From assembly GCA_002429485.1 (NCBI GenBank), contig DIZX01000015.1:187073-251072 (forward strand): DNA of 64,000 nt, in the 5' to 3' direction. This DNA is from Patescibacteria group bacterium UBA6017. GTDB taxonomy: Bacteria; Patescibacteriota; Saccharimonadia; UBA4664. Under the pieces are notes generated by a model. It did no database searches. It was not told the origin of the DNA and was given only the letters and a program-made list of their open reading frames with translations. This document shows, in pieces, positions 39,806 through 63,885 of this stretch. A program made the translations under genes and the position numbers. The stretch's first letter is position 1; the number at the start of each line of letters is the position of its first letter.

Positions 39806-39895
39806 TGGCGGAGAGGGAGAGATTCGAACTCTCGGAAGCCTTGCGGCCTCACCGCATTTCGAGTGCGGCGCACTAGTCCACTATGCGACCTCTCC
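39806..39895 (-). tRNA. tRNA-Ser (anticodon CGA)
   Basis: Manual fold: acceptor GGAGAGG, anticodon loop CTCGAAA, long variable arm, T-arm GAGAG-TTCGAAT-CTCTC, CCA encoded. Confidence 0.9.
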
Positions 39896-40129: not shown

Positions 40130-40205
40130 TGGTGCGCCCGGGAGGACTTGAACCTCCGACCCCCGCCACCGCAAGGCGATGCTCTATCCACTGAGCTACG
40201 AGCGC
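40130..40205 (-). tRNA. tRNA-Arg (anticodon read as GCG)
   Basis: 76 nt; acceptor GCGCTCG/CGGGCGC, D-arm GCTC-AGTGGATA-GAGC, anticodon arm TCGCC-TTGCGGT-GGCGG, T-arm GGAGG-TTCAAGT-CCTCC, CCA encoded. Confidence 0.8.
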
Positions 40206-40943: not shown

Positions 40944-41031
40944 GGAGGGGTCGCATAGCGGCCGAGTGCACCGGTCTTGAAAACCGGAGACCTTCACGGG
41001 TCCGTGGGTTCGAATCCCACCCCCTCCGCCA
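40944..41031 (+). tRNA. tRNA-Ser (anticodon TGA)
   Basis: GGAGGGG-TC-GCA-TAGCGGCCGAG-TGC-A-CCGGT-CTTGAAA-ACCGG, long variable arm, TGGGTTCGAATCCCA, CCA encoded. Confidence 0.9.
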
Positions 41032-42285: not shown

Positions 42286-42378
42286 TGGCGGAGAGGGAGA
42301 GATTCGAACTCTCGCGGGGGATTACTCCCCCCTACAGGTTTAGCAAACCCGCCCCTTCAGCCACTTGGGTACCTCTCC
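42286..42378 (-). tRNA. tRNA-Ser (anticodon GCT)
   Basis: Acceptor GGAGAGG, anticodon arm CGGGT-TTGCTAA-ACCTG, long variable arm, T-arm GAGAG-TTCGAAT-CTCTC, CCA encoded. A terminator-like hairpin lies at 42250-42282. Confidence 0.9.
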
Positions 42379-45938: not shown

Positions 45939-46388
45939 TTAGTTGGCTTTGGATAAAGCATTAATCACGAACTGGACGAGGGCGAAGGATATCACCGCCA
46001 CCACTATACCGACAATGGCATAAAGGATTGTGTCTTTGGCGGCCGTAACGTTCTTGGAGTCACCGTTCGAGACCACGTAGCGCAAGCCGCCGATGATCAA
46101 GTAGATCACCGAGATAGCACCGACGAGGAAGATCAAGGTGTTGGCAATCACGGTGAAAATACCGCCCTGTCCGAACAAGTTATCCTTCTGGCTGCCACCC
46201 TGAGAGCATGAAGCGCCAGCGGTCAGCGGATCAGTAGCGTTGCCACTCGCGTCACAGTTTGATGCAGCTCCGAAGGCCGGGGAGGCCGAAATCATCACAC
46301 CCGCAACGGATGCGGATCCTACTCCCAGCACCAGGACGAGCGCCTGGAGCGAGAGCGCAACTTTCTTTAATAATCTCTCTATACCCAT
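45939..46388 (-). CDS. T4SS pilin-like protein, paralog 1 (VirB2/TrbC-like: signal peptide plus two C-terminal hydrophobic helices)
   Basis: N-terminal signal peptide, a Cys pair (NCDAS...ASCSQ), then IFLVGAISVIYLIIGGLRYVVSNGDSKNVTAAKDTILYAIVGIVVAVISFAL. It has its own promoter (TTGCTA-17-TAATGT at 46427-46455) and an AAGGAG RBS. Confidence 0.6.
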   Translation of the reverse strand: MGIERLLKKVALSLQALVLVLGVGSASVAGVMISASPAFGAASNCDASGNATDPLTAGASCSQGGSQKDNLFGQGGIFTVIANTLIFLVGAISVIYLIIGGLRYVVSNGDSKNVTAAKDTILYAIVGIVVAVISFALVQFVINALSKAN

Positions 46389-46456
46389 TAGAATCTAATC
46401 TCCTTAATAAAATTCAATTTGATGTGACATTAGCATAAGCGTTAACGACTAGCAAT

Positions 46457-46780
46457 CTACTTTCCTATAGTAGTCGTCACGAACTGCACTATCGCATACG
46501 CTACGATTGCTACGATTACACCTATGATAGCGTACATGATGGTGTCCTTGGCGGCCGTCACGTTCTTCGAATCACCGTTGGAGGTCACGTAACGCAACCC
46601 GCCGAGAATAATCATAATGACAGATAGGGCACCGATAAGTATCGTCAAAAAGTTGGCGACATTTGCAAAGATATGAGCCAAGCTCACATTGTTGCAATTA
46701 GCCCCACTCGCACAAGCCTGATTTGCTCCGGCCGTAATATTACTCGCTGCTGTTCCCAGTAAAACAACCAAACTACTCAT
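46457..46780 (-). CDS. T4SS pilin-like protein, paralog 2
   Basis: Signal peptide, Cys pair (CASGANC), and the shared core LGGLRYVTSNGDSKNVTAAKDTIMYAIIGVIVAIVAYAI. AGGAGA lies 6 nt before the ATG. Confidence 0.6.
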   Translation of the reverse strand: MSSLVVLLGTAASNITAGANQACASGANCNNVSLAHIFANVANFLTILIGALSVIMIILGGLRYVTSNGDSKNVTAAKDTIMYAIIGVIVAIVAYAIVQFVTTTIGK

Positions 46781-46800
46781 TTACATTCTCCTAAATTATG

Positions 46801-47106
46801 CTATTTCCCGAGCGCCGCAGCGATTCCGTCCACGATCGCGTAAGCCATGATCGCCAGTATCACCCCAGCAATTGCATATTGGAGCGAATCCCGCCCCTGC
46901 TGATACCGCTTGGCATCACCAGCCGATAAAGTGATTTGCAGCCCTCCTACAATCACGAATATTACCGCCAGCATGCCAATTATTATTATAAGCGTATGCG
47001 CAATACTTGCGAACCCCGTACTCAAATTTGTAGCGGAACTCGGGCAATTGTTGATCGTTTTGCACGAAATACCGTATAGCACCGCGACCAACCAACCGCC
47101 CATCAT
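46801..47106 (-). CDS. T4SS pilin-like protein, paralog 3
   Basis: Cys pair CKTINNC; core VGGLQITLSAGDAKRYQQGRDSLQYAIAGVILAIMAYAI. Its start abuts the stop of paralog 4. Confidence 0.55.
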   Translation of the reverse strand: MMGGWLVAVLYGISCKTINNCPSSATNLSTGFASIAHTLIIIIGMLAVIFVIVGGLQITLSAGDAKRYQQGRDSLQYAIAGVILAIMAYAIVDGIAAALGK

Positions 47107-47451
47107 CTAAAAGTTCCCCGAAATAAACGTAACTGCGGCATACGACATAATAATTAATATTAGGCCCGTTACCGTATTGATGAGGATTTCTTTCGCCCGT
47201 TTCACCCTGGACGGATCTCCTGTCGAGGTAATGTAGTAAATTGCCGCCACTAATATTGCAATGATCGCCAGCGAACCGGATATCGCAATCAAAATTCGCA
47301 TTATGTTCCCGATAATCTTTGCAACCTCTGTCAGTGAGGAAATCTGAATTTCATTCTTCGAATTACACAGGCCGTCGTAAAGACTCGGAAGCACCCCGTG
47401 CGTGGTACCGCAGTCCGCGGCGGCCATATGAAATAGCTGCAAAAAGATCAT
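47107..47451 (-). CDS. T4SS pilin-like protein, paralog 4
   Basis: Cys pair (ADCG...GLCNS); core IYYITSTGDPSRVKRAKEILINTVTGLILIIMSYAAV. Its start abuts the stop of paralog 5. Confidence 0.55.
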   Translation of the reverse strand: MIFLQLFHMAAADCGTTHGVLPSLYDGLCNSKNEIQISSLTEVAKIIGNIMRILIAISGSLAIIAILVAAIYYITSTGDPSRVKRAKEILINTVTGLILIIMSYAAVTFISGNF

Positions 47452-47928
47452 CTACAGCAACCCTCCGGGTACCAGGAAGTTCAAGATCGCCACCATCATC
47501 AAGTAGAGTACCAGCGCGGTAACGGCGTTCATTATTCGTCCCTTAGCGTTCTTCACGTTCGACGGATCGCCGCCCGAAACAATGTACTGAACACCCGCGA
47601 TCACCAGGACCAATATAATTATCCCGCCAATCAGGCTGTTTACCAGAAAAAGTATCTGCTTAAGGTAAAAAATGATTGCTCCGCCGGTCTTGGGATCGTT
47701 CGGAACCTCCACCTGACCCGACTTGCATGATCCCTGAGATCCACCGGCTGCGATCGGCAGCGCTAAACAGACCGGACCGCCGCCCCCGGTAATATCGGCC
47801 GGCGCCTTTGCTGCGGCGCCCACTTCAGCTGGCACCACATACGCTTGGCTACCCAAAACAACAACGTCCAGTGGCGCCGATACAACAGCCGCAAACGCAA
47901 CAAACAGGAATAAACTTAAGCGCTTCAT
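47452..47928 (-). CDS. T4SS pilin-like protein, paralog 5 (first gene of the pilin operon)
   Basis: Signal peptide, Cys pair (PVCLAL...GSCKSG); core VQYIVSGGDPSNVKNAKGRIMNAVTALVLYLMMVAIL. Confidence 0.55.
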   Translation of the reverse strand: MKRLSLFLFVAFAAVVSAPLDVVVLGSQAYVVPAEVGAAAKAPADITGGGGPVCLALPIAAGGSQGSCKSGQVEVPNDPKTGGAIIFYLKQILFLVNSLIGGIIILVLVIAGVQYIVSGGDPSNVKNAKGRIMNAVTALVLYLMMVAILNFLVPGGLL

Positions 47929-48044: not shown

Positions 48045-51000
48045 ATGAGACGTAGGTGGTTCGGAATATTCCTCATGGCGTGGGCGTTTATGTCCCCACT
48101 GTTTGCGTTCGCCCCGGCGGCAGAAGCCGCCCCGCCCTCCGAGTGCCACTGGACTGACCCAAACCACATCGTTTGTGATGGCACCAGCACCTACACCAAG
48201 ACTGCATTCCAAAATACAACCATCTACCGATCGGATATAAGCCACTTTATTGCAAATATCAACGCCGCCCATACGGCTGGAACATTCACCGAAATCACCC
48301 AATCGCCCCAGACGGCCAATACATACCCGATGGCGCTTGGCAGCCCGGCTAATGCCACAACTACACCCAAAAATCCGCCGTCTACCTCCCTTGCCTGCTC
48401 CTGGACAGACAAAACACTCATTCAGTGCGGCACCGAACAATTTAAATTTATTCATATAGCAGCGCAAAACCAAGATCGCTGGGTCAATAGTGCCACCAGC
48501 TTCATTGCCAACGTATCGGCCAACAAGACCGCCGCCACCCATTACACCATGCTTCAATCGGGATTGCCCGGACCTACCAATCCGGTCACCCTTAGCAATC
48601 CGGCCAACGCCACCAAAAACCCAGCTGCTCCTGGCGGAGGTCCAACCGCCGATAAACCCGTCAACTGTGAAGCAGGCGCCTTCACTTGGCTCGTCTGCGG
48701 CAGCATCAAAATCCTCGTCGGTGTCGTCGACACCATTACTAACGATGTTATCGTTCCGTTCCTCAAAGAACCCCCGCTCGACAAAAACCAAAAAGAATTT
48801 GCCCCAGTCTATGCCATCTGGTCAGCATTTCGAAACGTTGCCAGCGTCTTCTTCATCCTCGTCTTCTTCCTGGTGATTATCGGCACCGCCCTCGGCTTCG
48901 ACAACTACACCATTAAGAAGGTTCTCCCGCACCTGGTAGCAGGCGCCATTTTGATGCCGTTCTCGTGGTATCTATGTGCCTTTTTGGTCGATATCGGCAA
49001 TGTGCTTGGCCAAGGCATCGTCGTACTCATGACTAATATTATTATTATCGGCACGCCCAAAGTAGATCTCACCTCGAATTTCACCACCTTATTCCTCGGT
49101 GTCGGCGGGGGAGTAGGCACTTTCGCATTAATCGGTGCCGCAACCATCCTGGGGTTCTGCGCCATAATCTCGCTGCTAATTGCCTTCGCCGGCGTATTTC
49201 TGACCCTGGTATTCCGCAAAATATTAATTCTGTTTCTGATCATCATCAGCCCGTTTGCCCTCCTGGCCTGGGTCCTGCCCAACACCGAGAAGTGGTTCAA
49301 AGAATGGTGGCAAAACTTCCTCAAGCTCGTTATGCTCTATCCCATCATCATGATGCTGATCGAGGTTGGCCGTCTGTTCTCCGCCACTGCCACCGCCGCC
49401 TCCCCCGGCGCCATCTGTGCCGCCGGCGATACGGCCTGTCAGGCGACAGCCTGGGTAGCACCATTCTTCGCCATCGCCGGACTCACCGTCCCGCTCTTTA
49501 TCATCCCGTTTGCCTTCAAGTTTGCCGGCAAGGGTCTCGCGGCGGGCAGCGGCGCCATCAACAAGCTTGGCGGCGGCATCGACAAGAAATACGGAAAGGA
49601 CAGCGCCCTCGCCAAGGACCTCGCCGAAGGGCGCCAGCGCAAGAATGTGGCAGCTGCCAAGATTGCCGAAAGCAACGCCAAGAGCGCTCATGGCCTTCAC
49701 AAGACCGCCCTGAACCGCAAAGCCGCCATGAACTGGCGCCGAGCCGGGTTGGCGGGCAGTACCGGCAGCGCCAAGCTGAGGCGCGGTGAGGCCGTCGGCA
49801 AAGCTGATAAAGAATTAAGTACGATTGATGCCGATAACCGTATGTCCAAAGAAGCAGATCCGGAAGACTTCCGGCAGCGCCGCCTCTCCACCACGCAGAG
49901 CATCCTCGACGAGAAGGCTGCCAACCGCGGTGCCCGCCAAGGTGTATTAGAAGGTTACAATGGCGCGGGCGCTCCAGGCGCACGAGACAAGCAGCACCAG
50001 GCTCGCATCAACTCCCGCGACAATTATCTGGCTGCAGCCGGAAAAGCCAAGGGCGAGATCGAAGACGACGCTCTCAACGAACGCGAACGAGTCAATCGCA
50101 CCGGCAATTACGTCAGCCCATCCATGAAAATGGCCGCCGCTCACGATACAGCCGCCCTTTCGGCCTCGGATGCTCGCGGAACAGCCAGAGGCATCGTTGA
50201 GGGCGGGGCTGAGGCTGAGCGTATCATTCAAAGTCAAACCGGCTTAAACGCCGCTGATGCCCGCGATCTTCGGCTCCGTAATGTAGCTAAAGCCAAAAGC
50301 AACATCCAAAGCGCTTCGGCAGTCACGACCCAACAAACTGCTAACACCAATGTAACCGCCAATGCCGAGCTCGATCGCCAGCAGATCGCAGCCGCCGGCG
50401 GCCATATGTCCCCCCAGCAAGCCCGCAGTCTACGTATGCAGAACCTATCCGCCGCCACTCACTCTCAAGAGCGTGAAAAGATTGGTGCCGCCGAAGGTCA
50501 GATCGATGCCCGAAATGCCATCACCGCCTCCGCCGGCCAGGAAAACATGGGCCGCCTGGTAACTGGTGAGCGGATGGCCGCCCGCGAGCAGCTCTCCAGC
50601 GCCCGGACCTTGCGCGAAGCCCGCGCCGACTTCCAAGCCACTCCCGAAGGCTATATGTCGACCGCTGACTCACTCAAGGCCAGCCGTTTGGAAGCCAACA
50701 AGCGTATAGGTGCCAGCATAGGCGCCCAAAAACAAGAGATCGCCCAGGAGCAGGAAGATATCGCCAAAGCCCTGCGCGACGGTAACCCTGCCCCCAGACT
50801 GGCCGACCACGTAATCGCCGGCACCGAAGCCGCCAAATCTAAGACCGCTCAAGACTCCGCCCAGCGCCTGGCCGCCGTCAACGCCGTCCGTACCGGCACC
50901 GCTGCCAGCACCAGACAGCACACCGACGCCGCCGTCTATACGGCCGAGCGCAGCACCGCCATCGCCGACGCCGCCGTCAAAGCCACCGCCAGCGCCGTTA

Positions 51001-52586
51001 ACGCCCAAATCGCCGCCGTTGCCGGGGAGAAGGGCTTATCTACAGCCGCCGCCGCCCAAGCCGTCCGCACCGATAATCTCAAAGTCGCTGCGCGCGCCAA
51101 AGAAATAACTACGAACGCAGAATTTGCTACTACTCCCGCAAAAGACAGAGGCGTCATCAAGGCGTATGAAGCCGCCATCGAACAGGCCCGAGAAGCCCCC
51201 CTCCGAAAAGCCAAGGTAGCAGCCTTTGAGCGTGCCGATGAAAATGCCCGCACCGACACCTATGAACAGTCCTATCAAATCGCAAAAGCCGCCAAAATGA
51301 CGGACAAGGCAGGCAAGATCGTGAAAGACGCCGCAGGCAACGAGGTTCTCAAGTTCACCGAAGGCGAAGCCCGAGACTATGCCGCAAAAGCCAGAGATAC
51401 GCTCGGCGCCGAAAGGGGCCAAAAAGCTGGTCGCGAGGCAGCCGACAAAATCACAGCCGTAGGCAAGTTGAATTCCGCAGATGCCGAACGAGCCGTGATC
51501 GCATCCTCCGCAACAGCCGCAGAAGAATTAGCCATGCGCACAGAAGCCTCCTCGCAAGCCCAAACTGCCGCCCTCAATCAGGCCGTTGAATCGTCTGCCA
51601 CAAAACTCGATGCTAGAGAGCGCCTAGCCGTCCAGACCGAAGGTTCCGTTGCAACACTAGCTGCCGAATCTGGAGCCGCCAGAGCCCGCTACGACCTTAC
51701 TCGTCCCGGACAATCGTTAAACCAATCCTATCAAGCTGCCGAAGACCACGTAGTAAAGTCCGAACGGCTAAAAATAATAGGTGATCGCGTCGAAAAAGCC
51801 GGCAATGAAGACTTTACCTTTATGGGCAAAGACGGAGTGCCACACTCCGACAGTGTCAAAAACGCCGACTTAGGCCCAGACGGCGTCAAAGCCCAGGACG
51901 ATGAAATCAGGAGGTTGCTCAAAGATGGTTACCAAGACCCCGAAAACGAAGATCGCGCCCTCGCGCTCGTAGGCAGACTGTCGTTAACGGGCAGCGGCAG
52001 AGAAAGAGTTCGCGCAATTCAACGTGACCTATTTGGAAGAACTGAAGACCAATTGATCGATCCCACCAGATTTAAGGGCCGGGCCAGTGAGCTCTGGGAG
52101 ATCGTGCAGTCAAAAAACAAATCTGATGTATCCAAGGACTTCTTCATGCCCGAACCTGCCGCCTATGACGGCTACAGCTCATCCGAGTTTGGTCGCTCTG
52201 GTTGGGGAGAAAAGAAAAATTACTTCGAATTCGCCAAAAGAGTAGACAAAGATAATATTTACGACGAATCTACTCGAAATATCCAACAAGCCCTAACCAA
52301 CGCTCAAGTTACAAAGGAACTGAATTCCGATGACTACGCTCAAATGTGGATCTATATGCAAGACCCCAAGGCCCTAACTGCTCTGGCCACACGAGACACA
52401 GACGCAGGGAAAGGCAAAACAGGCCTCGACATCGTAAAGAAGATATATGCGTCAGGTGGCGCGGCTGAAGCCGAAAAGAGATGGTTAGAAAAACAAGGCG
52501 GCGACCCAAGCAGGAATATTCTCAAACAATACGCAGATTCTGGCTTCACTGTTTTACCGCCAGTGCCACCCCCTCCGACCCCCTAG
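48045..52586 (+). CDS. VirB6/TrbL-like T4SS inner-membrane protein with an N-terminal Cys-pair repeat domain and an about 1000-aa Ala/Lys/Glu-rich C-terminal extension
   Basis: 1513 aa. It has a signal peptide; three C-x9-C motifs (CHWTDPNHIVCDG, CSWTDKTLIQCGT, CEAGAFTWLVCGS); a polytopic core of about 8 TM helices between residues 230 and 500; then a low-complexity Ala-rich helical tail. Confidence 0.7.
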   Translation: MRRRWFGIFLMAWAFMSPLFAFAPAAEAAPPSECHWTDPNHIVCDGTSTYTKTAFQNTTIYRSDISHFIANINAAHTAGTFTEITQSPQTANTYPMALGSPANATTTPKNPPSTSLACSWTDKTLIQCGTEQFKFIHIAAQNQDRWVNSATSFIANVSANKTAATHYTMLQSGLPGPTNPVTLSNPANATKNPAAPGGGPTADKPVNCEAGAFTWLVCGSIKILVGVVDTITNDVIVPFLKEPPLDKNQKEFAPVYAIWSAFRNVASVFFILVFFLVIIGTALGFDNYTIKKVLPHLVAGAILMPFSWYLCAFLVDIGNVLGQGIVVLMTNIIIIGTPKVDLTSNFTTLFLGVGGGVGTFALIGAATILGFCAIISLLIAFAGVFLTLVFRKILILFLIIISPFALLAWVLPNTEKWFKEWWQNFLKLVMLYPIIMMLIEVGRLFSATATAASPGAICAAGDTACQATAWVAPFFAIAGLTVPLFIIPFAFKFAGKGLAAGSGAINKLGGGIDKKYGKDSALAKDLAEGRQRKNVAAAKIAESNAKSAHGLHKTALNRKAAMNWRRAGLAGSTGSAKLRRGEAVGKADKELSTIDADNRMSKEADPEDFRQRRLSTTQSILDEKAANRGARQGVLEGYNGAGAPGARDKQHQARINSRDNYLAAAGKAKGEIEDDALNERERVNRTGNYVSPSMKMAAAHDTAALSASDARGTARGIVEGGAEAERIIQSQTGLNAADARDLRLRNVAKAKSNIQSASAVTTQQTANTNVTANAELDRQQIAAAGGHMSPQQARSLRMQNLSAATHSQEREKIGAAEGQIDARNAITASAGQENMGRLVTGERMAAREQLSSARTLREARADFQATPEGYMSTADSLKASRLEANKRIGASIGAQKQEIAQEQEDIAKALRDGNPAPRLADHVIAGTEAAKSKTAQDSAQRLAAVNAVRTGTAASTRQHTDAAVYTAERSTAIADAAVKATASAVNAQIAAVAGEKGLSTAAAAQAVRTDNLKVAARAKEITTNAEFATTPAKDRGVIKAYEAAIEQAREAPLRKAKVAAFERADENARTDTYEQSYQIAKAAKMTDKAGKIVKDAAGNEVLKFTEGEARDYAAKARDTLGAERGQKAGREAADKITAVGKLNSADAERAVIASSATAAEELAMRTEASSQAQTAALNQAVESSATKLDARERLAVQTEGSVATLAAESGAARARYDLTRPGQSLNQSYQAAEDHVVKSERLKIIGDRVEKAGNEDFTFMGKDGVPHSDSVKNADLGPDGVKAQDDEIRRLLKDGYQDPENEDRALALVGRLSLTGSGRERVRAIQRDLFGRTEDQLIDPTRFKGRASELWEIVQSKNKSDVSKDFFMPEPAAYDGYSSSEFGRSGWGEKKNYFEFAKRVDKDNIYDESTRNIQQALTNAQVTKELNSDDYAQMWIYMQDPKALTALATRDTDAGKGKTGLDIVKKIYASGGAAEAEKRWLEKQGGDPSRNILKQYADSGFTVLPPVPPPPTP

Positions 52587-52659: not shown

Positions 52660-53469
52660 ATGGGCCAGTATAAGGTGCCGCAAAACGTAGAGGCCGAGGA
52701 CAAGATTCTTGGCCCGTTAACTTTCAAGGAGTTTATCTACTTCTTGATGGGTTTTGGTTGGGCCGCGCTGAGCTTTGCCATCTTCCGTCAAATTCCCGTC
52801 CTCATGGTCGTCATCGGCTTTCCGCCCACCACGCTATTGCTGCTGCTGGCCTTCTACAACCGCGACGGCCAAAGCTTTGAGCAGCTCCTGGTAGCCATGG
52901 TGGGTTTCTTTGCCACCTCCCGCCGCCGCGCCTGGTCCAAAGATGACATCATCGAAACCTTCCACGTGGAGGCCACCGTCATCGCCGCCGAGGCCACCCA
53001 GCGCAATTCGGCCGAAGTCCGCGGTGAGCTCGAAAAACTCGCCAACCTCATCGATTCCCGCGGCTGGAACCACCCCCAGGAGCCCGAACCCTCACAGATC
53101 ATGCCATCTATCGCCCACACCGACCGCATCGTGCCCACGCCGCCGCCAACCCCCGGTGAAGTACCCACCGATATCCTCGACCTGCAGCAAAGTCCGCTGG
53201 CCCAAAACCTTGCCGAGCTACTACGCGCGGCAGCCGAAGACGTTCGCGAAGAGGCTATCCAGCAAATGGCCGGCAAGCCAGTCCGGCCCGTAAAAGGCGC
53301 TCCAGCCCCCACAAGCATAAGCGGCGTGACAGCCGCGTCGCCGAACGATATACTTCAATTAGCAACGCAGAGTGATGAGTTAAGTGTGACGCAGATTGCC
53401 GCCCAGGCCACCCGCCGGGTTGCGCTGCCAAACGGACAAACCTTGGAGATTCCCGTCAATGGCAGCTAA
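52660..53469 (+). CDS. PrgI-family (VirB3-like) T4SS membrane protein
   Basis: N-terminus KVPQNVEAEDKILGPLTFKEFIYFLMGFGWAALSFAIF matches the PrgI-family pattern (VPKDI..YEEK..GLT.RQ), followed by two TM helices. It overlaps the next gene by 11 nt. Confidence 0.65.
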   Translation: MGQYKVPQNVEAEDKILGPLTFKEFIYFLMGFGWAALSFAIFRQIPVLMVVIGFPPTTLLLLLAFYNRDGQSFEQLLVAMVGFFATSRRRAWSKDDIIETFHVEATVIAAEATQRNSAEVRGELEKLANLIDSRGWNHPQEPEPSQIMPSIAHTDRIVPTPPPTPGEVPTDILDLQQSPLAQNLAELLRAAAEDVREEAIQQMAGKPVRPVKGAPAPTSISGVTAASPNDILQLATQSDELSVTQIAAQATRRVALPNGQTLEIPVNGS

Positions 53470-54193
53470 CGCCAATACACATTCCGGTAAAAGCGCCCAA
53501 GATACCCTCCTGATCGCCGAGATCAAGGATGGCATCGTGGTCATGAAAGATGGCTCCCTCCGAGGCGTTATTCTCAGCAGCGCCATCAACTTCGACCTCA
53601 TGAGTCCCAGCGAGCAAGAGGCCGTCGAATCAGCCTATCAGGGCTTCCTCAACTCGCTGCATTTCCCCGTACAAATCTCCATTAAGAGCCAAAAAATCGA
53701 TATCACCGGCTACCTCGAGAAGCTCGATGCGCTCCGTGCTGAGCAACCCAATGAGCTCCTTGGCGTCCTGATGGACGACTACATCGCCAACATTCGCGCC
53801 CTCGTGGAAGAGGTCAATATTATGGACAAGCAGTTCTACGTGGTCATCCCGTATTTCCCCCCGTCCGCCGTTCAAAAAAGCAACAGCCTGATCGATAAGC
53901 TCAAAGGCGCCTTTGAATCCACCCCGATGATTACCGTCAGCGAGGAAGATTTCAAGAAGAACAAAACCGAGCTCTCGCAAAGAATGGCTCTGGCCGCCAA
54001 CGGCATGACCCAAATGGGCGTCCGCGCCATCTCGCTCGGCACCCAAGAGTTGGTTGACCTTTACTATTCCTGGTACAACCCCGACGTCGCCGTCAACCAA
54101 AAACTCATCGACACCTCACAGCTCGGCACGCCAGCCGTCACCAAGGGAGTCGGCTCCGCGCCGCGCGGCCCGCTACCGGGAGCACCACTGTAA
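53459..54193 (+). CDS. VirB4 N-terminal domain protein (split VirB4, part 1)
   Basis: IAEIKDGIVVMKDGSLRGVILSSAINFDLMSPSEQEAVESAYQGFLNSLHFPVQISIKSQKID is a typical VirB4/TraE N-domain. It ends at TAATG, which overlaps the next ATG. Confidence 0.7.
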   Translation: MAANANTHSGKSAQDTLLIAEIKDGIVVMKDGSLRGVILSSAINFDLMSPSEQEAVESAYQGFLNSLHFPVQISIKSQKIDITGYLEKLDALRAEQPNELLGVLMDDYIANIRALVEEVNIMDKQFYVVIPYFPPSAVQKSNSLIDKLKGAFESTPMITVSEEDFKKNKTELSQRMALAANGMTQMGVRAISLGTQELVDLYYSWYNPDVAVNQKLIDTSQLGTPAVTKGVGSAPRGPLPGAPL

Positions 54194-56064
54194 TGGGACT
54201 ATTTGGGAAAAAACCTGCTGCCACCGTCGACCAAGCTCAACTCGAACAGATGCAAAAATCGATGGAGTCTCGCGAAGCTGAGCTCATTTACCGTCAAGGT
54301 ATCGTCACCATGCGCGACCTCATCGCGCCGCCCTCAATCGAGGTGGAATCGGCCTATCTTCGCCTTGGCAAGCGCTACTGCAAGACTATCTATGTTTATG
54401 GCTACCCCCGCCAAGTTTTCACGGGCTGGTTATCGCCCATTATTAACCTCGACGAACTCGTCGATCTCTCGCTCTTTATCTACCCAGTCGAGAGCCAAGT
54501 GGTACTCACCAACCTCCGCCGCAAAATGGGCCAGCTCGAGGCCAGCTACAGTATCAACCAAGAAAAAGGCCTCGTTCGCGACCCTGGCCTAGAGGCCGCC
54601 ATTCAAGATGCCGAAGAACTCCGCGACAAGCTGCAAGTAGGGGAGGAGCGCTTCTTCCGTTTTGGACTTTACCTCACCATGTACGCTGACACGCTGGACA
54701 ACCTCAACCAAACCACGCGCAAGATTGAAGGTATCTTCGGTCAGTCACTGGTCTATACCAAACCCACCACTATGCAGATGGAACAGGGCTTCAACTCCAC
54801 CACCCCGCTCGGAACCGATCAGATGCAGATCAGCCGCAACATGAACACCGGCGCGCTCTCCACGAGCTTCCCCTTTACCTCCTCCGAACTCTCCCGCAAT
54901 GAAGGCATCCTTTATGGCCTCAACCGGCACAACAACGGCCTGGTACTCTTCGACCGGTTCAGCCTCGAAAACGCCAACATGGTGGTGTTCGCCAAGTCCG
55001 GCGCCGGTAAATCCTTCGCCATCAAGCTGGAGGCCCTGCGTAGCCTCATGATGGGCGTCGAATGCATCATTATTGACCCGGAAGACGAGTACAAGCCCCT
55101 CTGTGAGGCCGTCGGTGGAACCTACCTGCGCCTCAGCCTGGCCTCCAAGACTCGCATCAATCCCTTCGACCTTCCGCGCGTGTTCGACCAAGACGAGGCC
55201 GATAACGCTCTGCAGGCCAACATCATCTCGCTCCACGGCCTCCTGCGCCTCATGATGGGCGGCGCCACCGTCAATACCTCTACCGGCGCCACGCTGTCCT
55301 CGCCGCTTTCACCCGGCGAAGAAGCCGATCTGGATGCCGCCATCATCAACACCTACGCCCGCGCCGGCATCACCCGCGACCCGCTCACCCACAGCGCCAC
55401 CCCGCCCACCATGAACGACCTCTACAACACCCTCGCCTCCATGACCGGCACCGGCCCCGGCCTCGCCCAGCGCCTCCGCCAGTACACCACTGGCACCTTC
55501 TCTGGCATCTTCTCCGAACAATCCAACGTTGAGCTCGACAACCCCTTCCTGGTCTTCAACATCCGCGATCTCGAAGACGCCCTCCGCCCCGTCGGCATGT
55601 ACATTGTCCTCAACTACATCTGGAATAAAGTTAAATCCGACCGCCGCAAGCGCCTGCTCATTATTGACGAGGCCTGGCAGCTCATGAAGTACGACGATTC
55701 TGCCAACTTCATGTTCTCGCTCGCCAAACGCGCCCGCAAATACTACCTCGGCCTCACCACCATCTCGCAGGACGTCGAAGACTTCCTCGGCAGCAAGATG
55801 GGCCGCGCCGTGGTGGCCAACTCCTCCCTCCAGCTGCTGCTCAAGCAGGCCCCCAGCGCCACCGACATCATCGCCGAAACTTTCAAGCTCACCCAAGAAG
55901 AAAAGAACCGCCTCAGCCAATTCCCGGTGGGCGAGGGCCTATTCTTTGCCGGCCTCAACCATGTCATCATCCGCATCTTAGCGTCCGATACCGAGACCCA
56001 GCTCATATCAACTAATCCCGGCGGTACCAAAACCCCTCCGCCGACCGGAGGTGAGGCTCAATAA
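54193..56064 (+). CDS. VirB4-family T4SS ATPase (CagE/TrbE/VirB domain; split VirB4, part 2)
   Basis: Walker A VVFAKSGAGKSF, Walker B LLIIDEAWQLM, and the central motif YVYGYPRQVFTGWLSPII...DLSLFIYPV. Confidence 0.9.
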   Translation: MGLFGKKPAATVDQAQLEQMQKSMESREAELIYRQGIVTMRDLIAPPSIEVESAYLRLGKRYCKTIYVYGYPRQVFTGWLSPIINLDELVDLSLFIYPVESQVVLTNLRRKMGQLEASYSINQEKGLVRDPGLEAAIQDAEELRDKLQVGEERFFRFGLYLTMYADTLDNLNQTTRKIEGIFGQSLVYTKPTTMQMEQGFNSTTPLGTDQMQISRNMNTGALSTSFPFTSSELSRNEGILYGLNRHNNGLVLFDRFSLENANMVVFAKSGAGKSFAIKLEALRSLMMGVECIIIDPEDEYKPLCEAVGGTYLRLSLASKTRINPFDLPRVFDQDEADNALQANIISLHGLLRLMMGGATVNTSTGATLSSPLSPGEEADLDAAIINTYARAGITRDPLTHSATPPTMNDLYNTLASMTGTGPGLAQRLRQYTTGTFSGIFSEQSNVELDNPFLVFNIRDLEDALRPVGMYIVLNYIWNKVKSDRRKRLLIIDEAWQLMKYDDSANFMFSLAKRARKYYLGLTTISQDVEDFLGSKMGRAVVANSSLQLLLKQAPSATDIIAETFKLTQEEKNRLSQFPVGEGLFFAGLNHVIIRILASDTETQLISTNPGGTKTPPPTGGEAQ

Positions 56065-58547
56065 TGGCTACTGGTTTTAAATCTTACCGGACTAAACCTA
56101 CCGACGGTTCTGACGAACCTATAAGCAACAGTCCGCAGATGAATGACGACAACCTAACAAATGGTCCGATAGTCCCAGCCCAGCCCGACGGCGCCCCTCT
56201 CACCCCCCACGAGCAAGCCACCATTGATCAAATGGAGGCCGGTTTTGACACCGACAGCATCCCGGAGCCAGAGCAGCCAGCACAGTCCGGCTCCGAGCCG
56301 GCTTCTTCGGCCGGCCAACCCTCGGGCCAATCCGCAGCCAACCACGCTCCTCGCTCCGATGCCAAGGCCCAGCCCGACGCCAACCCGGAAAATACCGACA
56401 CCCCTAGCGCGGAAGATAAGAAACAAGCCGCCGAAGATGAGGCTGCCGACGAAAAAAAGTCCATGGCCAAACAAGCCTCCAAGGATACCGCCAGGCGAAC
56501 CGCCCTCTACGCCGGCGCCGAAATCGGTAAAGAGATCGTCAAAGACGCCGCCAAGGATGTTGCGCATGGAGCGGCCCAAAACGCCGCCAAACATGAAGCC
56601 AAAAAAGTCACGGGCGCCATGATCAAGGGCGCCGCTAAATCCGGTGTCAAAAAGGCCGCCAAGAAAACTCTCAAGCGGGCGATCTTCAAGTACATTTTTG
56701 GGTTTGGCATCCCCACGCTCGGCATTATCGGGATTCTCTTCTTCCTCCTCTTATTCAAGAGCGTCCACATCCGCAATATCTATATCGATTACGAATTCGC
56801 CAAATTCGACCGCGCCTTTAGCCGCCGCCTCCAAAAGGCCGCCAAAGAAGCTCAAGCCAAGGGCACGCCCACGACCGAAGTCGCCGCCGATGCCACCCCC
56901 GAGGAACAGCTCAAAGGCGCCAACAAGGATGCCATCGATCAGATCAAAAATGATCCGGCGGCGATGGAAAAAGAAGCTAAGGCCGGCACCGATTTTGAGC
57001 AAACCAAGGCCGGCGTCGGTGGCGAGACGGATCTAGAATTCGGCATTAAACGCAGCGTGGCTCCGGAGGACGAAACCGACCCCAGGAAAGCTCAAACCGC
57101 CGTGGAAACTGAAATTAAAGACGAAATCAGGGGTCCCAAAGGTACTACAGGTGATCCGGGGCCGTTGAAAAATGCCGTCGACGAAGCCAACAAGCAAGCC
57201 GACGCGGGAGCTACCCCCGAAGAGATCAGGGCCGGCGCCATTAAAAACGTCGGCAGCCTGCTGTCGGGTGTCACCGGTAAGGCCGCCGCCGCCCTTTTCA
57301 TCGCCACCATGGGCTGTATTGCCCGCGATATCTATGTCACAAGCGTCGACTTATTTTCCCAAATTAAACTCAGCGCTTTGGCTCGTACTGCCGCCTCCAT
57401 CGCCAAGCACGCCGACTGCCATCGCGAAGTCGACAACCATTGCGGCCTCGCCAGTGAAGCGGCCGTTTCCCAGATGTTCGATTCCGCCACCGAATCATTC
57501 ATCAATACTGCCGGCTACCAACGCGCCACCAACCAACCCGTCAGCTACGCCAAGTCCAACCGTGACCTCGATCCGGCCATGGAACCAGTAAATCATGGTA
57601 CCGGGCTCGCCGGCGAGCTTATGGGTATCATCAATAGCGTCAATAGCGTCGCCAACTTTCCCGGCCTAGGCTCGGTCTGCACCATAGTGCTAACCCCGGC
57701 CTTCCAGATCACCGCCACCATCTCCCTCGTCCTCGCCCAGGTCGCCCTGGCCATTAGTGGTGTTGCCGACTTTGGCCTCAGCGATGTTGTTCTAGCTGCC
57801 GTTACTACTGCAGCCCAAATCCTCGCCACCAAGGCGGGCACTGCCCTCGCCGTCGATGCCGTCCTTCATTATTCGGGCCTCATTTTCCGCGGCCCCTTCA
57901 CGCCCACCCAAATGGGCAACATGATGGATGCCGGCTCCAAGGTCATGAGCTCCGACGCCTGCATGCGCAGCGGCTGCCACCAGCTCACCCCCGCCCAAAA
58001 CCAGCAGCTCTCCGACTCCATCCACCACGACCAGGTCGAGTACGCCCAGCGCCAAGGCATAGCCTACCGCCTCTTCAGCCCCGAAAACCCCAACTCGGTC
58101 CTTGGTCTCGTCGCCGACCGTGTTCCTTCCCACGTCGGCAGCGCCGTCACCATGGTCCAAACCGCCATCATCAACAACGCCGTACCCGGCCGATGGCTCA
58201 AGATGCTTGGCCAGCTGGCCGCTGCCAGCCCCACCACGGCCTATGCCGCCACGGCCGAATACCAAACCTACAACCTGCCGGATTGGGGCGTCCCGGACAG
58301 CGAAGCTGACAAATACGGCGTTATCGAAAACAGCCGCTGGGTAGAGGCCAATATCGATGCCGCTACCAAGACCAAATTCGAAGACTGCTTCAATACCCCG
58401 ATGAACAAAATGCTTACCAAACCCGGACTGACTGACCTTGCCTTCTGCAACGACATTACCGAACCTATTACTCGCTACCGCATCTTCAAGCTCGATCAGC
58501 GCGCCTCCCACGCCCTTGTAGTTCTCAATAATAATCAGGCCAAATAA
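56064..58547 (+). CDS. T4SS-embedded membrane protein of unknown function (827 aa)
   Basis: An about 200-aa disordered Pro/Gln/Ala/Lys-rich N-terminal region, a TM helix (IFGFGIPTLGIIGILFFLLLF), then a large Cys-containing domain with further hydrophobic segments. TAATG overlap with the VirB4 gene. Confidence 0.5.
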   Translation: MATGFKSYRTKPTDGSDEPISNSPQMNDDNLTNGPIVPAQPDGAPLTPHEQATIDQMEAGFDTDSIPEPEQPAQSGSEPASSAGQPSGQSAANHAPRSDAKAQPDANPENTDTPSAEDKKQAAEDEAADEKKSMAKQASKDTARRTALYAGAEIGKEIVKDAAKDVAHGAAQNAAKHEAKKVTGAMIKGAAKSGVKKAAKKTLKRAIFKYIFGFGIPTLGIIGILFFLLLFKSVHIRNIYIDYEFAKFDRAFSRRLQKAAKEAQAKGTPTTEVAADATPEEQLKGANKDAIDQIKNDPAAMEKEAKAGTDFEQTKAGVGGETDLEFGIKRSVAPEDETDPRKAQTAVETEIKDEIRGPKGTTGDPGPLKNAVDEANKQADAGATPEEIRAGAIKNVGSLLSGVTGKAAAALFIATMGCIARDIYVTSVDLFSQIKLSALARTAASIAKHADCHREVDNHCGLASEAAVSQMFDSATESFINTAGYQRATNQPVSYAKSNRDLDPAMEPVNHGTGLAGELMGIINSVNSVANFPGLGSVCTIVLTPAFQITATISLVLAQVALAISGVADFGLSDVVLAAVTTAAQILATKAGTALAVDAVLHYSGLIFRGPFTPTQMGNMMDAGSKVMSSDACMRSGCHQLTPAQNQQLSDSIHHDQVEYAQRQGIAYRLFSPENPNSVLGLVADRVPSHVGSAVTMVQTAIINNAVPGRWLKMLGQLAAASPTTAYAATAEYQTYNLPDWGVPDSEADKYGVIENSRWVEANIDAATKTKFEDCFNTPMNKMLTKPGLTDLAFCNDITEPITRYRIFKLDQRASHALVVLNNNQAK

Positions 58548-58549: not shown

Positions 58550-59842
58550 ATGCGACGCTTACTACTCATCCTTTCCCTCGCCCTTGTTCCGTTTCAGGCG
58601 CTAGCCGTCACGCCCGCCACCAGCCATATCCTCAACTATCAATCTACCTTCTACGACCCCGCCGACACTGGCCAAACTTGCGGCAGCCCCACGAGCGGTG
58701 GCGCTCCCGCTGGCAGCGGCAACCCCAGCGGTACGCAAGTTCAACACGCTCAATCCATCATCGGTATTGCGAAAACCTTAAACATGGGCAAGCAAGGCGC
58801 TCTCATTGGGCTTATGGTTGCCCTAGCCGAATCCAGTCTTCAAAATTACGCCAATGACGGCTCATTTCAACCCAGCTATGCACCTTTAAAGGCAATTTCT
58901 GAAGCCCTTCCGCACGACGCCGTCGGCAGAGATCATGACTCCGTCGGCTTGTTTCAGCAGCGCGCGGTTGATGGCAGCTGGGGGCCAGTGAGCCCCTCCA
59001 AGGACCTGGCCGGAAACGTTAAATGGCTCATGACCCCAACCTATTCCGCCGAGGCCTTCTTTGCCATGCCGGCCGGGAAAGGTGACACCAAAGCCCTGAC
59101 GAACGTCTCTGGGTGGCAGACCATGGACCCTGCAGTCGCTGCCCAAAAAGTCCAGGCGTCAGGCGACCCTAGTGGCGGCAACTACCGACGTCAGCAGTCC
59201 GCCGCCGAAGCCCTATTAACTAAATACTATGACTCTTCGCCCGCCATAGCGCTCCCAGTACCATTGGCTAAGGGTGGCGGCGGTGGCGGTGGCGGCAACG
59301 GGGGATCGAGCGGAGGGACTGCGAACAGCTCATGCCCCGATACCTCAGCTCCTACCACCGGAGGCCCGATCTCGGGCTGCACCAACCCCATCACCGATCA
59401 TCGCTGGCAGCCCGCCCGAACAGATCAGGGCGTCGACTACGTCGAGAACGCCAACATCCCCGTCCGTGCCATCTGCGACGGCACCATAGTGGAAACCGAT
59501 GGCGGCGGCTGGCCGGGCGGATACTTTGTAATCATAAAAATGTCGGCCGGCCCTTACATAGGAAAATGCACCTTTGTTGCCGAACATCTCAGTAATGTAT
59601 TGCCCAAGGGCACAAAAGTGAAAGCCGGACAACAAATTGCCACCACCCTGCCGGGTTACCCCTGGACTGAATGGGGCTGGGCCGCCGGACCTCAGACCCC
59701 TAGCACGACGTATAATGGCGCCGCAGATGGGTCCTCTATGCCGGGAGGAAAAGCCTTTGCCCGTTTCCTCCGCCACCTCGGAGCCAAAACCCAACAAGAC
59801 CCCGGTCCTGGCCCCGAATACGCCGGCAGCAATTGTAATTAA
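58550..59842 (+). CDS. secreted two-domain cell-wall hydrolase (SLT/lysozyme-like N-domain, poly-Gly linker, M23/LytM-like C-domain); functional analogue of VirB1/PrgK/TcpG
   Basis: Signal peptide; ALAESSLQNYANDG...DHDSVGLFQQR (E-S...GLxQ transglycosylase-like); G8-NGGSSGG linker; C-domain DQGVDYV...GKCTFVAEHLSNV...KAGQQIATT (M23-like, but the canonical HxH is not obvious). Confidence 0.6.
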   Translation: MRRLLLILSLALVPFQALAVTPATSHILNYQSTFYDPADTGQTCGSPTSGGAPAGSGNPSGTQVQHAQSIIGIAKTLNMGKQGALIGLMVALAESSLQNYANDGSFQPSYAPLKAISEALPHDAVGRDHDSVGLFQQRAVDGSWGPVSPSKDLAGNVKWLMTPTYSAEAFFAMPAGKGDTKALTNVSGWQTMDPAVAAQKVQASGDPSGGNYRRQQSAAEALLTKYYDSSPAIALPVPLAKGGGGGGGGNGGSSGGTANSSCPDTSAPTTGGPISGCTNPITDHRWQPARTDQGVDYVENANIPVRAICDGTIVETDGGGWPGGYFVIIKMSAGPYIGKCTFVAEHLSNVLPKGTKVKAGQQIATTLPGYPWTEWGWAAGPQTPSTTYNGAADGSSMPGGKAFARFLRHLGAKTQQDPGPGPEYAGSNCN

Positions 59843-60558: not shown

Positions 60559-60834
60559 CTACCCTCGCAGCTGTCCGATACTGATTGCCAGCCGCTTCGG
60601 CCGCTCACCAGCCAAATTCTCTACAAGGTTTAGCAGTTCCACCTGCCGCATCCGCAGCTCTCCCGCCACCCCCGCGCTGGGCGTCTCCAGCCGCAGTGTT
60701 CCCTGGTGCAGCTGCCGGGCCCGCACCTTCTGTGGGTACCAGTCGTCCAACACCTTTTGGATCCCCACCAGCACATCCTCACGGTCCATCCCCAGCTTCG
60801 CCCTCAAGCGTGCAAAATAATCCGGCTCAAGCAT
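60559..60834 (-). CDS. DUF721 (DciA-like) protein
   Basis: About 92 aa; LVGIQKVLDDWYPQKVRARQL...LRLETPSAGVAGELRMRQVELLNLVENLAGERPKRLAISIG. It overlaps recF (ATGCTTGA). The tracked ORF extends to 60897. Confidence 0.55.
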   Translation of the reverse strand: MLEPDYFARLRAKLGMDREDVLVGIQKVLDDWYPQKVRARQLHQGTLRLETPSAGVAGELRMRQVELLNLVENLAGERPKRLAISIGQLRG

Positions 60835-61894
60835 GTGCTGCCTCCGTAGAAATAATTTTGTGAGCGGTCTTAAACTCCCGTGCGATAGCGTCAGCATCGG
60901 TCGTCGTCACCATCGTCTGATAACCTTCCAGCCGGTTGAGCAGGTACCCGCGCCGATATTTATCGAGCTCGCTAAACACATCGTCGAGCAATAGTAGGGG
61001 ACGCACCCCCGTGTGCTCCTCGGCATACCCCAGCTCCGCCAGCTTCATCGCCAGCACCAACGTGCGAGTCTCACCCCGTGAGGCCACCTTGGTAATGTCA
61101 TTATTTTTAAAGTAAATCCGAAAATCTTCCCGGTGTGGCCCAATCGTGGTAAATCCCGCCCCCAAATCCCGCGTGAGATTACGCGCCAATGCCTCCAGAA
61201 ATTCATCTTCATACACCCCCTGAACGCTTGGAATATACTCAAACCCCACCTCCACCGTCTCACCTGCAATATCCCGGTAGAGCAGGGGAGTGGCCCCCGA
61301 CAGTACCCGCAGCAGCTCTTGACGCTGACGGTATATTTCCACCGCCAATTCAGCCAACTTAATGTCCCAGGTAAATATTTGCTGCCGAATCCGCTCCATG
61401 TCGAAACCGTCCAGCAATGCGTTGCGTTGCTTCAGTACCCGCCGGTATTGCTGCAAAGTCGTCAAATAAGTCCGATCCGTTTGACTCAATAAAAAGTCCA
61501 GATACCGCCGCCGGGCCTCGGGCGCGCCCGCTACCAACTCCAAGTCGGTCGGTTCAAACAGTGTCACCTGGATCTGGCCTACGTGCCCCACCAGAGTACG
61601 TTTCACCCCGTCGTGAGTAATCTTTTTTTCAGTTGTTTCGCCGGCCGCGTAGCCAATCGCATACTCCGTGACGTCGGTATGAGCCACCACCCGAAAATGA
61701 TCCTGCCCGTGCCGCACCAGATCACGGTCCTTGGCTCGAAAGCTCTTCGTCGAGGCCAGCACGTACAAACTCTCCAGTAAATTGGTCTTGCCGCTGGCAT
61801 TCGGGCCCACCACTAACGTCACATCCGGATGCAGCTCAAACTGAGCCGTGTCGTACGAGCGAAAATTTGTCAGCTCCAAGCTCTGTATCCTCAT
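60827..61894 (-). CDS. recF: DNA replication and repair protein RecF
   Basis: MRIQSLELTNFRSYD...VGPNASGKTNLLESL (Walker A) and a C-terminal signature and Walker B region. Confidence 0.95.
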   Translation of the reverse strand: MRIQSLELTNFRSYDTAQFELHPDVTLVVGPNASGKTNLLESLYVLASTKSFRAKDRDLVRHGQDHFRVVAHTDVTEYAIGYAAGETTEKKITHDGVKRTLVGHVGQIQVTLFEPTDLELVAGAPEARRRYLDFLLSQTDRTYLTTLQQYRRVLKQRNALLDGFDMERIRQQIFTWDIKLAELAVEIYRQRQELLRVLSGATPLLYRDIAGETVEVGFEYIPSVQGVYEDEFLEALARNLTRDLGAGFTTIGPHREDFRIYFKNNDITKVASRGETRTLVLAMKLAELGYAEEHTGVRPLLLLDDVFSELDKYRRGYLLNRLEGYQTMVTTTDADAIAREFKTAHKIISTEAAHA

Positions 61895-62775: not shown

Positions 62776-63885
62776 TTAAGTCCGCAACGGCATCACAATG
62801 TGAAGATAATCATCCGTCGCATTTTCACCGGCCGGCGATATCACGCACGGGCTCAGCTTGCCGCTGATTGCCACCGTCACCATCGGGCTCTTCACCGCCG
62901 CCAACGCGTCCGTGAGGTATCGGGCATTCAGCGAAATTTCGCCGTCCTCACCATTAACTTCACATTCGGCCGACGACTTATTGCCGCCCACCTCGGAATC
63001 ATTCGACACCACACTCACTTCGCCCTCAGATTTGATTTCCAACCGAATACTGCCGGCGCTTTCCCTGGCAAATAAACTTGCCACCTTGGTAATTCGTGCC
63101 AGCTCTGCCGTGGCAATATCGAACGATGTCTCGGCGCTCTCGGGGATAATTCTCCGGTAAGGGGGAAACTGCCCCTCGATCAATCTCGACACTACCTCGA
63201 CGTCAGCGATTCTAAACATCACCTGGTTCTCATCCACGTAAACTTCCACGTCACCCTCTGCGTCGCCTAGAAGCTTCACCAGCTCTTGCATCGTGCGAGC
63301 TGGCACGAGGACTGAAAACTCCTTAGGAGCACCCTGGGGCAGCTCTATGCGCTTCTCAGCTAAGCGGTAAGAGTCGGTTGCCACAATAAACAATGATTCA
63401 TCTTCGATATACATATACACCCCGGCCAATACCGGCCTGGCCTCGTCCGCCGATGCCGCCACCACTACCTGGGCCAGCGCATCCCGAAATATCACCGCAT
63501 CCAGTGTCAGCGCGGGGTCGCTCGTGAGTGTCGGGATCAAGGGAAACTCTTCCGCCGAGATCCCGTTGATCTTCGACTCGTAATGAGGGCTCTTGACCGT
63601 CAATACGCTATCCAGCCCATGCAACTCAATATTGCCGTGGGGGAGACTTGATACAAACTCCGCGAATAGGCGAGCAGGCACGGTCAATGATCCCTGCTCC
63701 TCCACCTTCGAACCAATCCAATAATTAATCCCGATCTCGAGATTGGTCGCCGACAATCTCAATCGATTGCCGTCAGTAGCCAATAAAACATTCGCGAGTA
63801 CCGGTAGGCTAGCTCTGGTTGACACTACCCGACCAACGCTGGCGAGAGCTCGAGAGAGATTCTCCTGGGTTAAACTGAGTCTCAA
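62776..63885 (-). CDS. dnaN: DNA polymerase III beta sliding clamp
   Basis: MRLSLTQENLSRALASVGRVVSTRASLPVLANVLLATDGNRLRLSATNLEIGI...; 369 aa. An AT-rich region lies upstream (63886-64000). Confidence 0.95.
   Translation of the reverse strand: MRLSLTQENLSRALASVGRVVSTRASLPVLANVLLATDGNRLRLSATNLEIGINYWIGSKVEEQGSLTVPARLFAEFVSSLPHGNIELHGLDSVLTVKSPHYESKINGISAEEFPLIPTLTSDPALTLDAVIFRDALAQVVVAASADEARPVLAGVYMYIEDESLFIVATDSYRLAEKRIELPQGAPKEFSVLVPARTMQELVKLLGDAEGDVEVYVDENQVMFRIADVEVVSRLIEGQFPPYRRIIPESAETSFDIATAELARITKVASLFARESAGSIRLEIKSEGEVSVVSNDSEVGGNKSSAECEVNGEDGEISLNARYLTDALAAVKSPMVTVAISGKLSPCVISPAGENATDDYLHIVMPLRT

Follow-up and report, generated by a model that had tools for sequence, protein, structure and literature searches.

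Within a 64,000 nucleotide (nt) stretch of contig DIZX01000015.1, referred to here in its whole length as the window, a type IV secretion system (T4SS) operon contains two adjacent genes whose products together resemble the motor ATPase VirB4. The first encodes a TrsD-like protein of 244 amino acids (aa) (53459-54193, + strand; ATG start, stop codon TAA at 54191-54193), and the second encodes a short VirB4 ATPase of 623 aa (54193-56064, +; ATG at 54193-54195). They are preceded by the gene for a 269 aa PrgI-family, VirB3-like protein (52660-53469, +), which scored 46.8 bits against PF12666 PrgI (cut-off 27), and the ATPase gene is followed directly by one encoding an 827 aa protein (56064-58547, +). 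Together with the hydrolase gene described below, these genes form one tightly packed operon. A first-pass annotation of this DNA had described the central pair as a VirB4 split into two translationally coupled open reading frames (ORFs). Its coordinates for both were confirmed from the ORF map and the sequence; the length of 245 aa that it gave for the first product was one residue too long, the stop codon having been counted, although the ORF itself was correct.

The TrsD-like and ATPase genes meet in the pentanucleotide TAATG (54191-54195, +), and a second TAATG joins the ATPase gene to that of the 827 aa protein (56062-56066, +), both as first reported. At the upstream boundary the stop codon of the PrgI-like gene (TAA, 53467-53469) lies beyond the ATG of the TrsD-like gene at 53459, which gives the overlap of 11 nt that had also been noted. 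Shine-Dalgarno (SD)-like cores precede all three starts, namely GGAG at 53445-53448, GGGAG at 54178-54182 and GGAGG at 56047-56051. Each is embedded in the gene before it, near the 3' end, and the second one, in the TrsD-like gene, lies 10 nt 5' of the ATPase ATG. Both features expected of a translationally coupled pair were thus found, a stop/start overlap and an SD core of the downstream gene placed inside the upstream coding sequence. TAATG overlaps are frequent in bacterial operons, and one alone carries no weight as evidence.

The junctions were therefore surveyed in 80 Saccharimonadia loci, one genome per species, which were located with a 14-sequence alignment and covered 49-92% identity; 78 of these had both parts. 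A 1-nt overlap (TAATG, TGATG or TAGTG) occurred in 53 of the 78 loci and a fused gene in none, an outcome of the comparison with orthologs, proposed at first pass, that agrees with a two-gene VirB4. We defined an SD core as GGAG, GAGG or AGGA lying 4-20 nt 5' of the ATPase start and used windows inside the same gene as controls. Such a core was present in 48 of 54 overlapping junctions (the window included in this count), compared with 9.4% of the control windows, and it was kept although the C-terminal peptides encoded over the same nucleotides vary (...PGAPL*, ...RELQ*, ...GGPF*). Conservation of the TAATG overlap exceeds chance. The flanking junctions are also shared in part. An 11 nt overlap between the PrgI and TrsD-like genes was seen in 10 related loci, with overlaps of 1-53 nt in further close relatives; these statistics are sound for close relatives only, as the start-codon heuristic breaks on distant loci with N-terminal extensions. 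The 1-nt overlap between the ATPase gene and that of the 827 aa protein recurs in the orthologous locus L002 (10606/10606), while the orthologous locus L001 has a gap of 90 nt there.

The 623 aa protein had Pfam matches to PF19044 P-loop_TraG, AAA_10 and DUF87. Its score on NF045971 (VirB4-like, CD1110 family) was 362.3 bits against a cut-off of 325, over positions 182-731 of 752. On TIGR00929 (111.5 bits, cut-off 643, positions 238-729 of 792) and NF045975 (249.7 bits, cut-off 590, positions 277-893 of 894) it remained under the cut-offs, as expected because the protein is divergent and lacks the N-terminus. Residues 230-606 matched the VirB4 C-terminal domain 4ag5_A with an E value of 3e-47, covering 2-388 of the 392 residues in that chain. 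The GAGKS of Walker A, at residue 270, and the IIDEAW of Walker B, at residue 490, are both intact, their positions are invariant in an alignment of fused relatives, and neither the 244 aa nor the 623 aa ORF contains an internal stop. The T4SS context of this ATPase consists of the PrgI/VirB3-like gene, five T4SS_pilin genes, a TrbL_3 protein in the orthologs and an M23 hydrolase. Two parts can be distinguished in the protein. Approximately residues 1-229 make up the second half of an N-terminal domain, and the ATPase domain at the C-terminus, which is RecA-like, takes up approximately residues 230-606. Because about 230 residues precede the segment corresponding to the crystallized C-terminal domain, the cut must lie inside the VirB4 N-terminal domain; the division into an "N-domain" and an "ATPase body" made in the first-pass annotation therefore does not hold. 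The complete N-terminal domain is not contained in the 623 aa chain; the part that is absent from it comes from the 244 aa gene upstream.

The best NCBIfam match of the 244 aa protein was NF041427, the TrsD/TraD family conjugative transfer protein (E value 3e-9, profile positions 12-142 of 201). It also matched the beginnings of full-length VirB4 profiles, covering positions 11-79 of the CD1110 profile and 18-177 of TIGR00929 VirB4_CagE, as well as 111-233 of NF045975. When 65 diverse members of its family were searched, the N-terminus of NF045975 was hit by 64, TrsD by 61, CD1110 by 46 and TIGR00929 by 22. A precomputed match to PF26593.2 "TraC-like" (E value ≤1e-5) exists for the identical database protein P0001, and PF26593.2 was assigned to all 120 of the best homologs. 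A local Pfam search with hmmscan returned no family, the model probably being missing from that copy. Comparison of the 65-sequence family with TrsD of the Staphylococcus aureus plasmid pSK41 by hhalign gave 88.7% probability and an E value of 2.6e-6 over 176 columns (query 9-205, TrsD 30-216), and BLASTP aligned the two proteins over 81 residues only, at 28% identity. Matches to PHROGs were marginal and without meaning, and the "TraD" of the pELF plasmid paper is a VirD4 homolog and has no bearing here.

An AlphaFold2 (AF2) model of the 244 aa protein reached a predicted local distance difference test score (pLDDT) of 84 and a predicted TM-score (pTM) of 0.72. In a Foldseek search with this model the 14 best PDB matches were all to TrwK/VirB4 of R388, at probabilities of 0.97-1.00 (11 of them at 1.00); these matches included 7O41 and 8RTB, entries of the R388 structures of Macé et al. 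Since the fold search gave no target coordinates, the assignment to a particular part of the N-terminal domain rests on the profile coordinates. From these, the 244 aa protein is probably the equivalent of the first sub-domain in the VirB4 N-terminal domain, roughly positions 1 to 180 of a full-length VirB4. The profile coverage of the two ORFs is complementary, and a full VirB4 is thus covered collinearly, by positions of approximately 11-180 from the first protein and 182-731 from the second.

Protein and locus comparisons indicated that this arrangement is an old and conserved one. We found 2362 homologs of the 244 aa protein in a large protein collection. The best 120 of these, at 70-100% identity, were nearly all proteins of 240-256 aa from Candidatus Saccharimonadia or Patescibacteria, with three of 216-241 aa and one of 416 aa. 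Among representatives of clusters at 50% identity there were 2046 matches, and of the top 150 all but one (149) were short proteins. In a pair of orthologous loci (92% and 71% identity) the genes follow one another in the order of the window, with the pilin array, the giant TrbL_3 protein, PrgI, the TrsD-like protein, the ATPase, a protein of 820-960 aa and a hydrolase. Both keep the 11 nt and 1-nt overlaps, and the locus at 71% lies on a contig of 1.1 Mb. Relative to the nearest species, the ratio of nonsynonymous to synonymous substitution (dN/dS) was 0.045 in the N-part and 0.052 in the C-part, and both genes are under strong purifying selection. The two-gene split is genuine, and neither a sequencing indel nor a pseudogene can account for it; the contention of the first-pass annotation that both halves are intact and make up a true two-gene VirB4 is borne out by the Walker motifs, the uninterrupted frames, the dN/dS of about 0.05, the recurrence of the layout in dozens of independent Saccharimonadia assemblies and the conserved SD core.

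The same split was found outside the Patescibacteria. A tblastn search of plasmids returned 99 records, chiefly from Bacillus, Clostridium and their relatives along with a few haloarchaea. On the Geobacillus plasmid pGspE55-1 and on a C. difficile plasmid, PrgI, a TrsD-like protein of 318-322 aa, a DUF87 ATPase of 636-640 aa and a protein of about 900 aa are encoded in this order. The Geobacillus TrsD-like protein spans positions 2-174 of the CD1110 profile. On S. aureus pSK41 the corresponding genes encode, one after the other, TraC (135 aa), TrsD (227 aa), a DUF87/VirB4-like TraE (672 aa), a membrane protein and a CHAP hydrolase. A haloarchaeal example is the Haloarcula pelagica plasmid NZ_CP126164.1 (L006 4977-8929), on which a 556 aa protein with a TrsD-like N-terminus (24% identity, E value 6e-4) is followed by a 761 aa VirB4-like ATPase; because of this pair, the split layout appears to reach archaeal plasmids. 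On the CD1110 profile the ATPase starts at position 182 in the window, 183 in the Geobacillus plasmid, 183 in pSK41 and 158 in the Haloarcula plasmid. That pSK41, the Bacillota plasmids and the haloarchaeal plasmid have the same cut point identifies the 244 aa protein as a distant TrsD/TraD relative, one that its score places outside the narrow NF041427 subfamily. In the window, in pSK41, in the Geobacillus and C. difficile plasmids and in the Saccharimonadia orthologs alike, its gene is flanked by one for a VirB3-like protein and one for a VirB4 that is short at the N-terminus. A cut point common to these lineages points to a single ancient fission or, what amounts to the same, to an ancestor that already had two genes.

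The pGO1/pSK41 systems (MPF_FATA, pGO1 subclass) resemble the window in the order of a small membrane protein, TrsD and the ATPase and in their tight packing, and the ATPases of pSK41 and the window align end to end at 25% identity. They differ in that pSK41 has a gap of 14 nt between trsD and the ATPase gene rather than TAATG, in the very distant homology of the two TrsD-like proteins, and in that the system of pSK41 is a conjugative one carried by a plasmid, with a relaxase and VirD4, while the system in the window is chromosomal, near recF and dnaN, with an array of five pilin genes. Full-length VirB4/TraC/TrwK proteins, such as TrwK of R388 and the CD1110-family VirB4 of integrative and conjugative elements of Gram-positive bacteria, are single chains of about 750-820 aa, unlike the two polypeptides of the window, and share with the pair the collinear profile coverage, a C-terminal domain homologous to 4ag5 and the TrwK fold matches. 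The boundary between the VirB3 and VirB4 genes is likewise variable in some conjugative systems with VirB3-VirB4 fusions, although a fusion is involved there and a fission here.

Natural fusions of the two parts also exist. In the 898 aa protein P0268 the N-part aligned with residues 12-223 (33% identity) and the C-part with residues 312-886 (51%), separated by a linker of about 90 aa that is Pro/Ala-rich, of low complexity and poorly conserved. A search with P0268 returned approximately 70 clusters of 860-910 aa carrying both PF26593 and PF19044; the few with an organism name came from metagenome-assembled genomes of Candidatus Berkelbacteria or Patescibacteria, one of them Saccharimonadales. 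The Berkelbacteria fusions (P0268 and the 906 aa protein of CP066695.1) are like the window in having PF26593 followed by PF19044/DUF87, and their gene again comes after a PrgI-like gene. They are unlike it in being a single ORF in which the linker takes the place of the stop/start junction. We considered the 582 aa protein P0336, 83% identical to P0268, as a split Berkelbacteria protein and rejected it, since the DNA (Candidatus Berkelbacteria CP066695.1, L088 3029-5749) contains a continuous 906 aa ORF, in which an annotated internal start gives the 582 aa and leaves about 950 nt unannotated. Because this fusion ORF is continuous, other short "VirB4" entries in Berkelbacteria may be mis-called starts. 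Homologs of 300-480 aa were also examined as possible PrgI-TrsD fusions, and no trend emerged; PrgI was present in P0093 and in none of nine others tested. In P0093 (416 aa, from a 3-kb Joint Genome Institute contig) the PrgI domain is in frame with the TrsD-like domain, which could reflect either an uncommon VirB3-TrsD fusion or an error of assembly, gene calling or frame.

Taken together, these data suggest that the VirB4 motor of this T4SS is encoded by two adjacent genes, one TrsD-like and one for a short VirB4, whose products rebuild the canonical architecture; we put the probability of this reading at roughly three in four. The overlap and the embedded SD core would allow ribosomes that finish trsD to re-initiate, or to be recruited, at the ATPase start, and such coupling would lead to co-ordinated and probably near-equimolar synthesis of TrsD and VirB4. 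The 244 aa and 623 aa proteins would then assemble physically, TrsD presumably binding by non-covalent contacts to what the ATPase retains of the N-terminal domain. Together with PrgI/VirB3, TrsD may occupy the side of the VirB4 hexamer nearest the membrane. In the R388 structures of Macé et al. the VirB4 N-domain is reported to contact VirB3 and VirB8. The rebuilt VirB4 would energize T4SS assembly and secretion.

Several observations weigh against this reading. The 244 aa protein scored 36.9 bits on NF041427, far under the curated cut-off of 200, where pSK41 TrsD scores 227.6. Its likeness in fold to TrwK is modest (query TM-score, TMq, 0.34-0.45; E value approximately 1e-3) and came without target coordinates, and searches of PDB chains with the protein (phmmer) and with its profile (hmmsearch) found no VirB4. 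About one third of the related loci show small gaps or other overlaps at the TrsD-like/ATPase junction, and for this reason coupling by strict termination and reinitiation does not hold everywhere. For the fusion P0268, an AF2 model based on 39 fused homologs had a pLDDT of 60 and a pTM of 0.42 and was too poor for docking, with pLDDT below 50 in the linker and in the second half of the N-domain. Lastly, TrsD has been given no function in the literature (Quinonero-Coronel et al. 2025, PMC12102498).

This last point also favors the foremost alternative, that the TrsD-like protein is an independent accessory factor, such as an assembly chaperone, a regulator or an adaptor, which descended from the VirB4 N-terminal sub-domain and is not a stoichiometric, permanently bound piece of the motor. 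Its existence as a separate gene in Bacillota plasmids, Patescibacteria and haloarchaea would have given time for functional divergence, TrsD homologs of Gracilibacteria have been reported without association with VirB4 (PMC12102498), and many homologs carry variable N-terminal extensions of 50-230 aa. Against such a role stand the immediate adjacency, overlapping junction and conserved SD core across Saccharimonadia and the natural Berkelbacteria proteins in which TrsD is joined in frame to the ATPase, as well as the fact that the segment missing from short VirB4s is exactly what TrsD supplies. We consider an accessory role unlikely, though the most plausible of the alternatives.

Programmed -1 frameshifting or stop-codon bypass could yield a fused VirB4 besides or instead of two proteins. 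The ATPase ORF does overlap the TrsD-like ORF and is in its -1 frame, and the fused versions in Berkelbacteria are evidently functional, but there is no slippery heptamer at ...CCACTGTAATGG..., and what is conserved is a start codon with its SD core. Among related loci the junctions take all relative frames, their gaps range from -47 to +187 nt and in-frame stops are present; a conserved frameshift site is incompatible with such variation in frame and spacing, and a conserved programmed frameshift is very unlikely. An artefact or recent lesion, whether an indel from sequencing or assembly or a pseudogene in which a frameshift has broken a VirB4 that is normally fused, would by itself also leave two ORFs in different frames sharing one base, but has a negligible probability given the identical architecture of independent assemblies down to about 50% identity, the lack of any fused gene among the 78 loci, the proper ATG and SD core of the second ORF, the dN/dS of about 0.05 in both parts and the intact state of every catalytic motif. 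Artefact and frameshifting combined account for at most a very small part of the probability.

Carried further, the preferred reading of a motor encoded by two genes leads to a more tentative proposal, to which we give somewhat less than even odds. TrsD could quite literally be the first sub-domain of the VirB4 N-terminal domain, set free by one ancient fission that pGO1-type Gram-positive plasmids, haloarchaeal plasmids and Patescibacteria have in common; in Berkelbacteria a disordered linker would later have joined it to the ATPase again. As a separate subunit, it would let the cell set or regulate the number of N-terminal modules that dock on the VirB4 hexamer and on VirB3/PrgI.

The remainder of the locus also belongs largely to the T4SS. 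The first gene of the operon encodes a giant protein of 1513 aa (48045-52586, +, from the ORF map), for which the Pfam scan gave a weak Big_3_2 match only. Its orthologs measure 1520 aa in L002 and 2221 aa in L001, both with a precomputed match to PF19590 TrbL_3, and the giant is probably an extended VirB6/TrbL-like membrane component. Oriented divergently from the operon is an array of five tandem genes for VirB2-like T4SS pilins (45939-47928, -), located at 45939-46388, 46457-46780, 46801-47106, 47107-47451 and 47452-47928. All five products scored above the gathering score of PF18895 T4SS_pilin, they are divergent from each other in sequence, and the array is also present in the orthologous loci L002 and L003. 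Arrays of VirB2-like pilins are unusual in monoderm-type T4SS. They have been reported for Saccharimonadia (PMC12102498).

Downstream of the motor genes, the 827 aa protein had no significant match in Pfam, NCBIfam or PHROGs. A protein of 820-960 aa lies right behind the VirB4 gene in L001, L002 and the Geobacillus and C. difficile plasmids, and the 827 aa protein is a conserved, unnamed T4SS component. Two nt past its ORF begins that of a 430 aa protein (58550-59842, +) with an M23 peptidase domain (PF01551 Peptidase_M23, 31.4 bits, cut-off 28.7). Orthologous loci have different hydrolase domains at this position (SLT_2, Glyco_hydro_3, lysozyme and VanY), and the M23 protein is likely the cell-wall hydrolase of the T4SS, with a VirB1-like role.

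The operon is surrounded by housekeeping genes. Downstream it adjoins recF (60827-61894, -), followed by dnaN (62776-63885, -), which places the locus beside the likely replication origin; the T4SS operon is chromosomal and origin-proximal, and belongs to an uncultured Candidatus Saccharimonadia bacterium.

A few features elsewhere in the window deserve mention. GC skew is negative over all 64 kb, whatever the strand of the genes. Four tRNA-Ser genes (9670-9759, 39806-39895, 40944-41031 and 42286-42378) represent the isoacceptors GGA, CGA, TGA and GCT, and three of the four are grouped with a tRNA-Arg gene (40130-40205) within 2.6 kb. A full-length threonine dehydratase of the biosynthetic type (32007-33539, +) has a PALP domain and two Thr_dehydrat_C regulatory domains; amino acid biosynthesis is described as missing in this lineage, which makes its presence slightly unexpected.

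The layout of TrsD with a short VirB4 is already known and is ordinary for this clade, so that its detection here is a correct rediscovery. In Patescibacteria no other T4SS component is as abundant as TrsD, for which 2272 homologs were counted, 1664 of them next to VirB4 (Quinonero-Coronel et al. 2025, PMC12102498). The same paper notes its remote homology to the VirB4 N-terminus, its occurrence in the pGO1 subclass of MPF_FATA and its essentiality in Southlakia epibionticum ML1, and the T4SS cluster was found to be essential for epibiotic growth (Wang et al. 2023, PMC10633639). Models for the small TrsD-like protein are held by both NCBIfam and Pfam. The Patescibacteria T4SS described in these two papers has the same VirB4, TrsD, PrgI/VirB3, VirB6-like protein and VirB2-like pilin arrays as the window, is likewise origin-proximal with TrsD next to virB4, and shows no substantive difference from it, the window being one more case from the Saccharimonadia. 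The passages of PMC12102498 that were searched contain no mention of in-frame TrsD-VirB4 fusions or of Berkelbacteria, nor a statement that the short VirB4 lacks exactly the segment found in TrsD. Because the layout is in the literature, little new biology is added by the present analysis; the fusions, the exact complementarity and the conserved internal SD core are modest additions to it.

The T4SS is essential to the epibiotic life of Saccharibacteria. If TrsD is indeed the missing first piece of VirB4, this would offer a concrete hypothesis for the essentiality of TrsD, and its reading as a detached sub-domain would give it a defined structural role in the assembly of the T4SS of monoderms and Patescibacteria. 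Models and annotations of these systems should in that case treat TrsD and VirB4 as one motor. For annotation, genes of the "short VirB4" kind should not be called truncated, nor the small ORF upstream of them a hypothetical protein.

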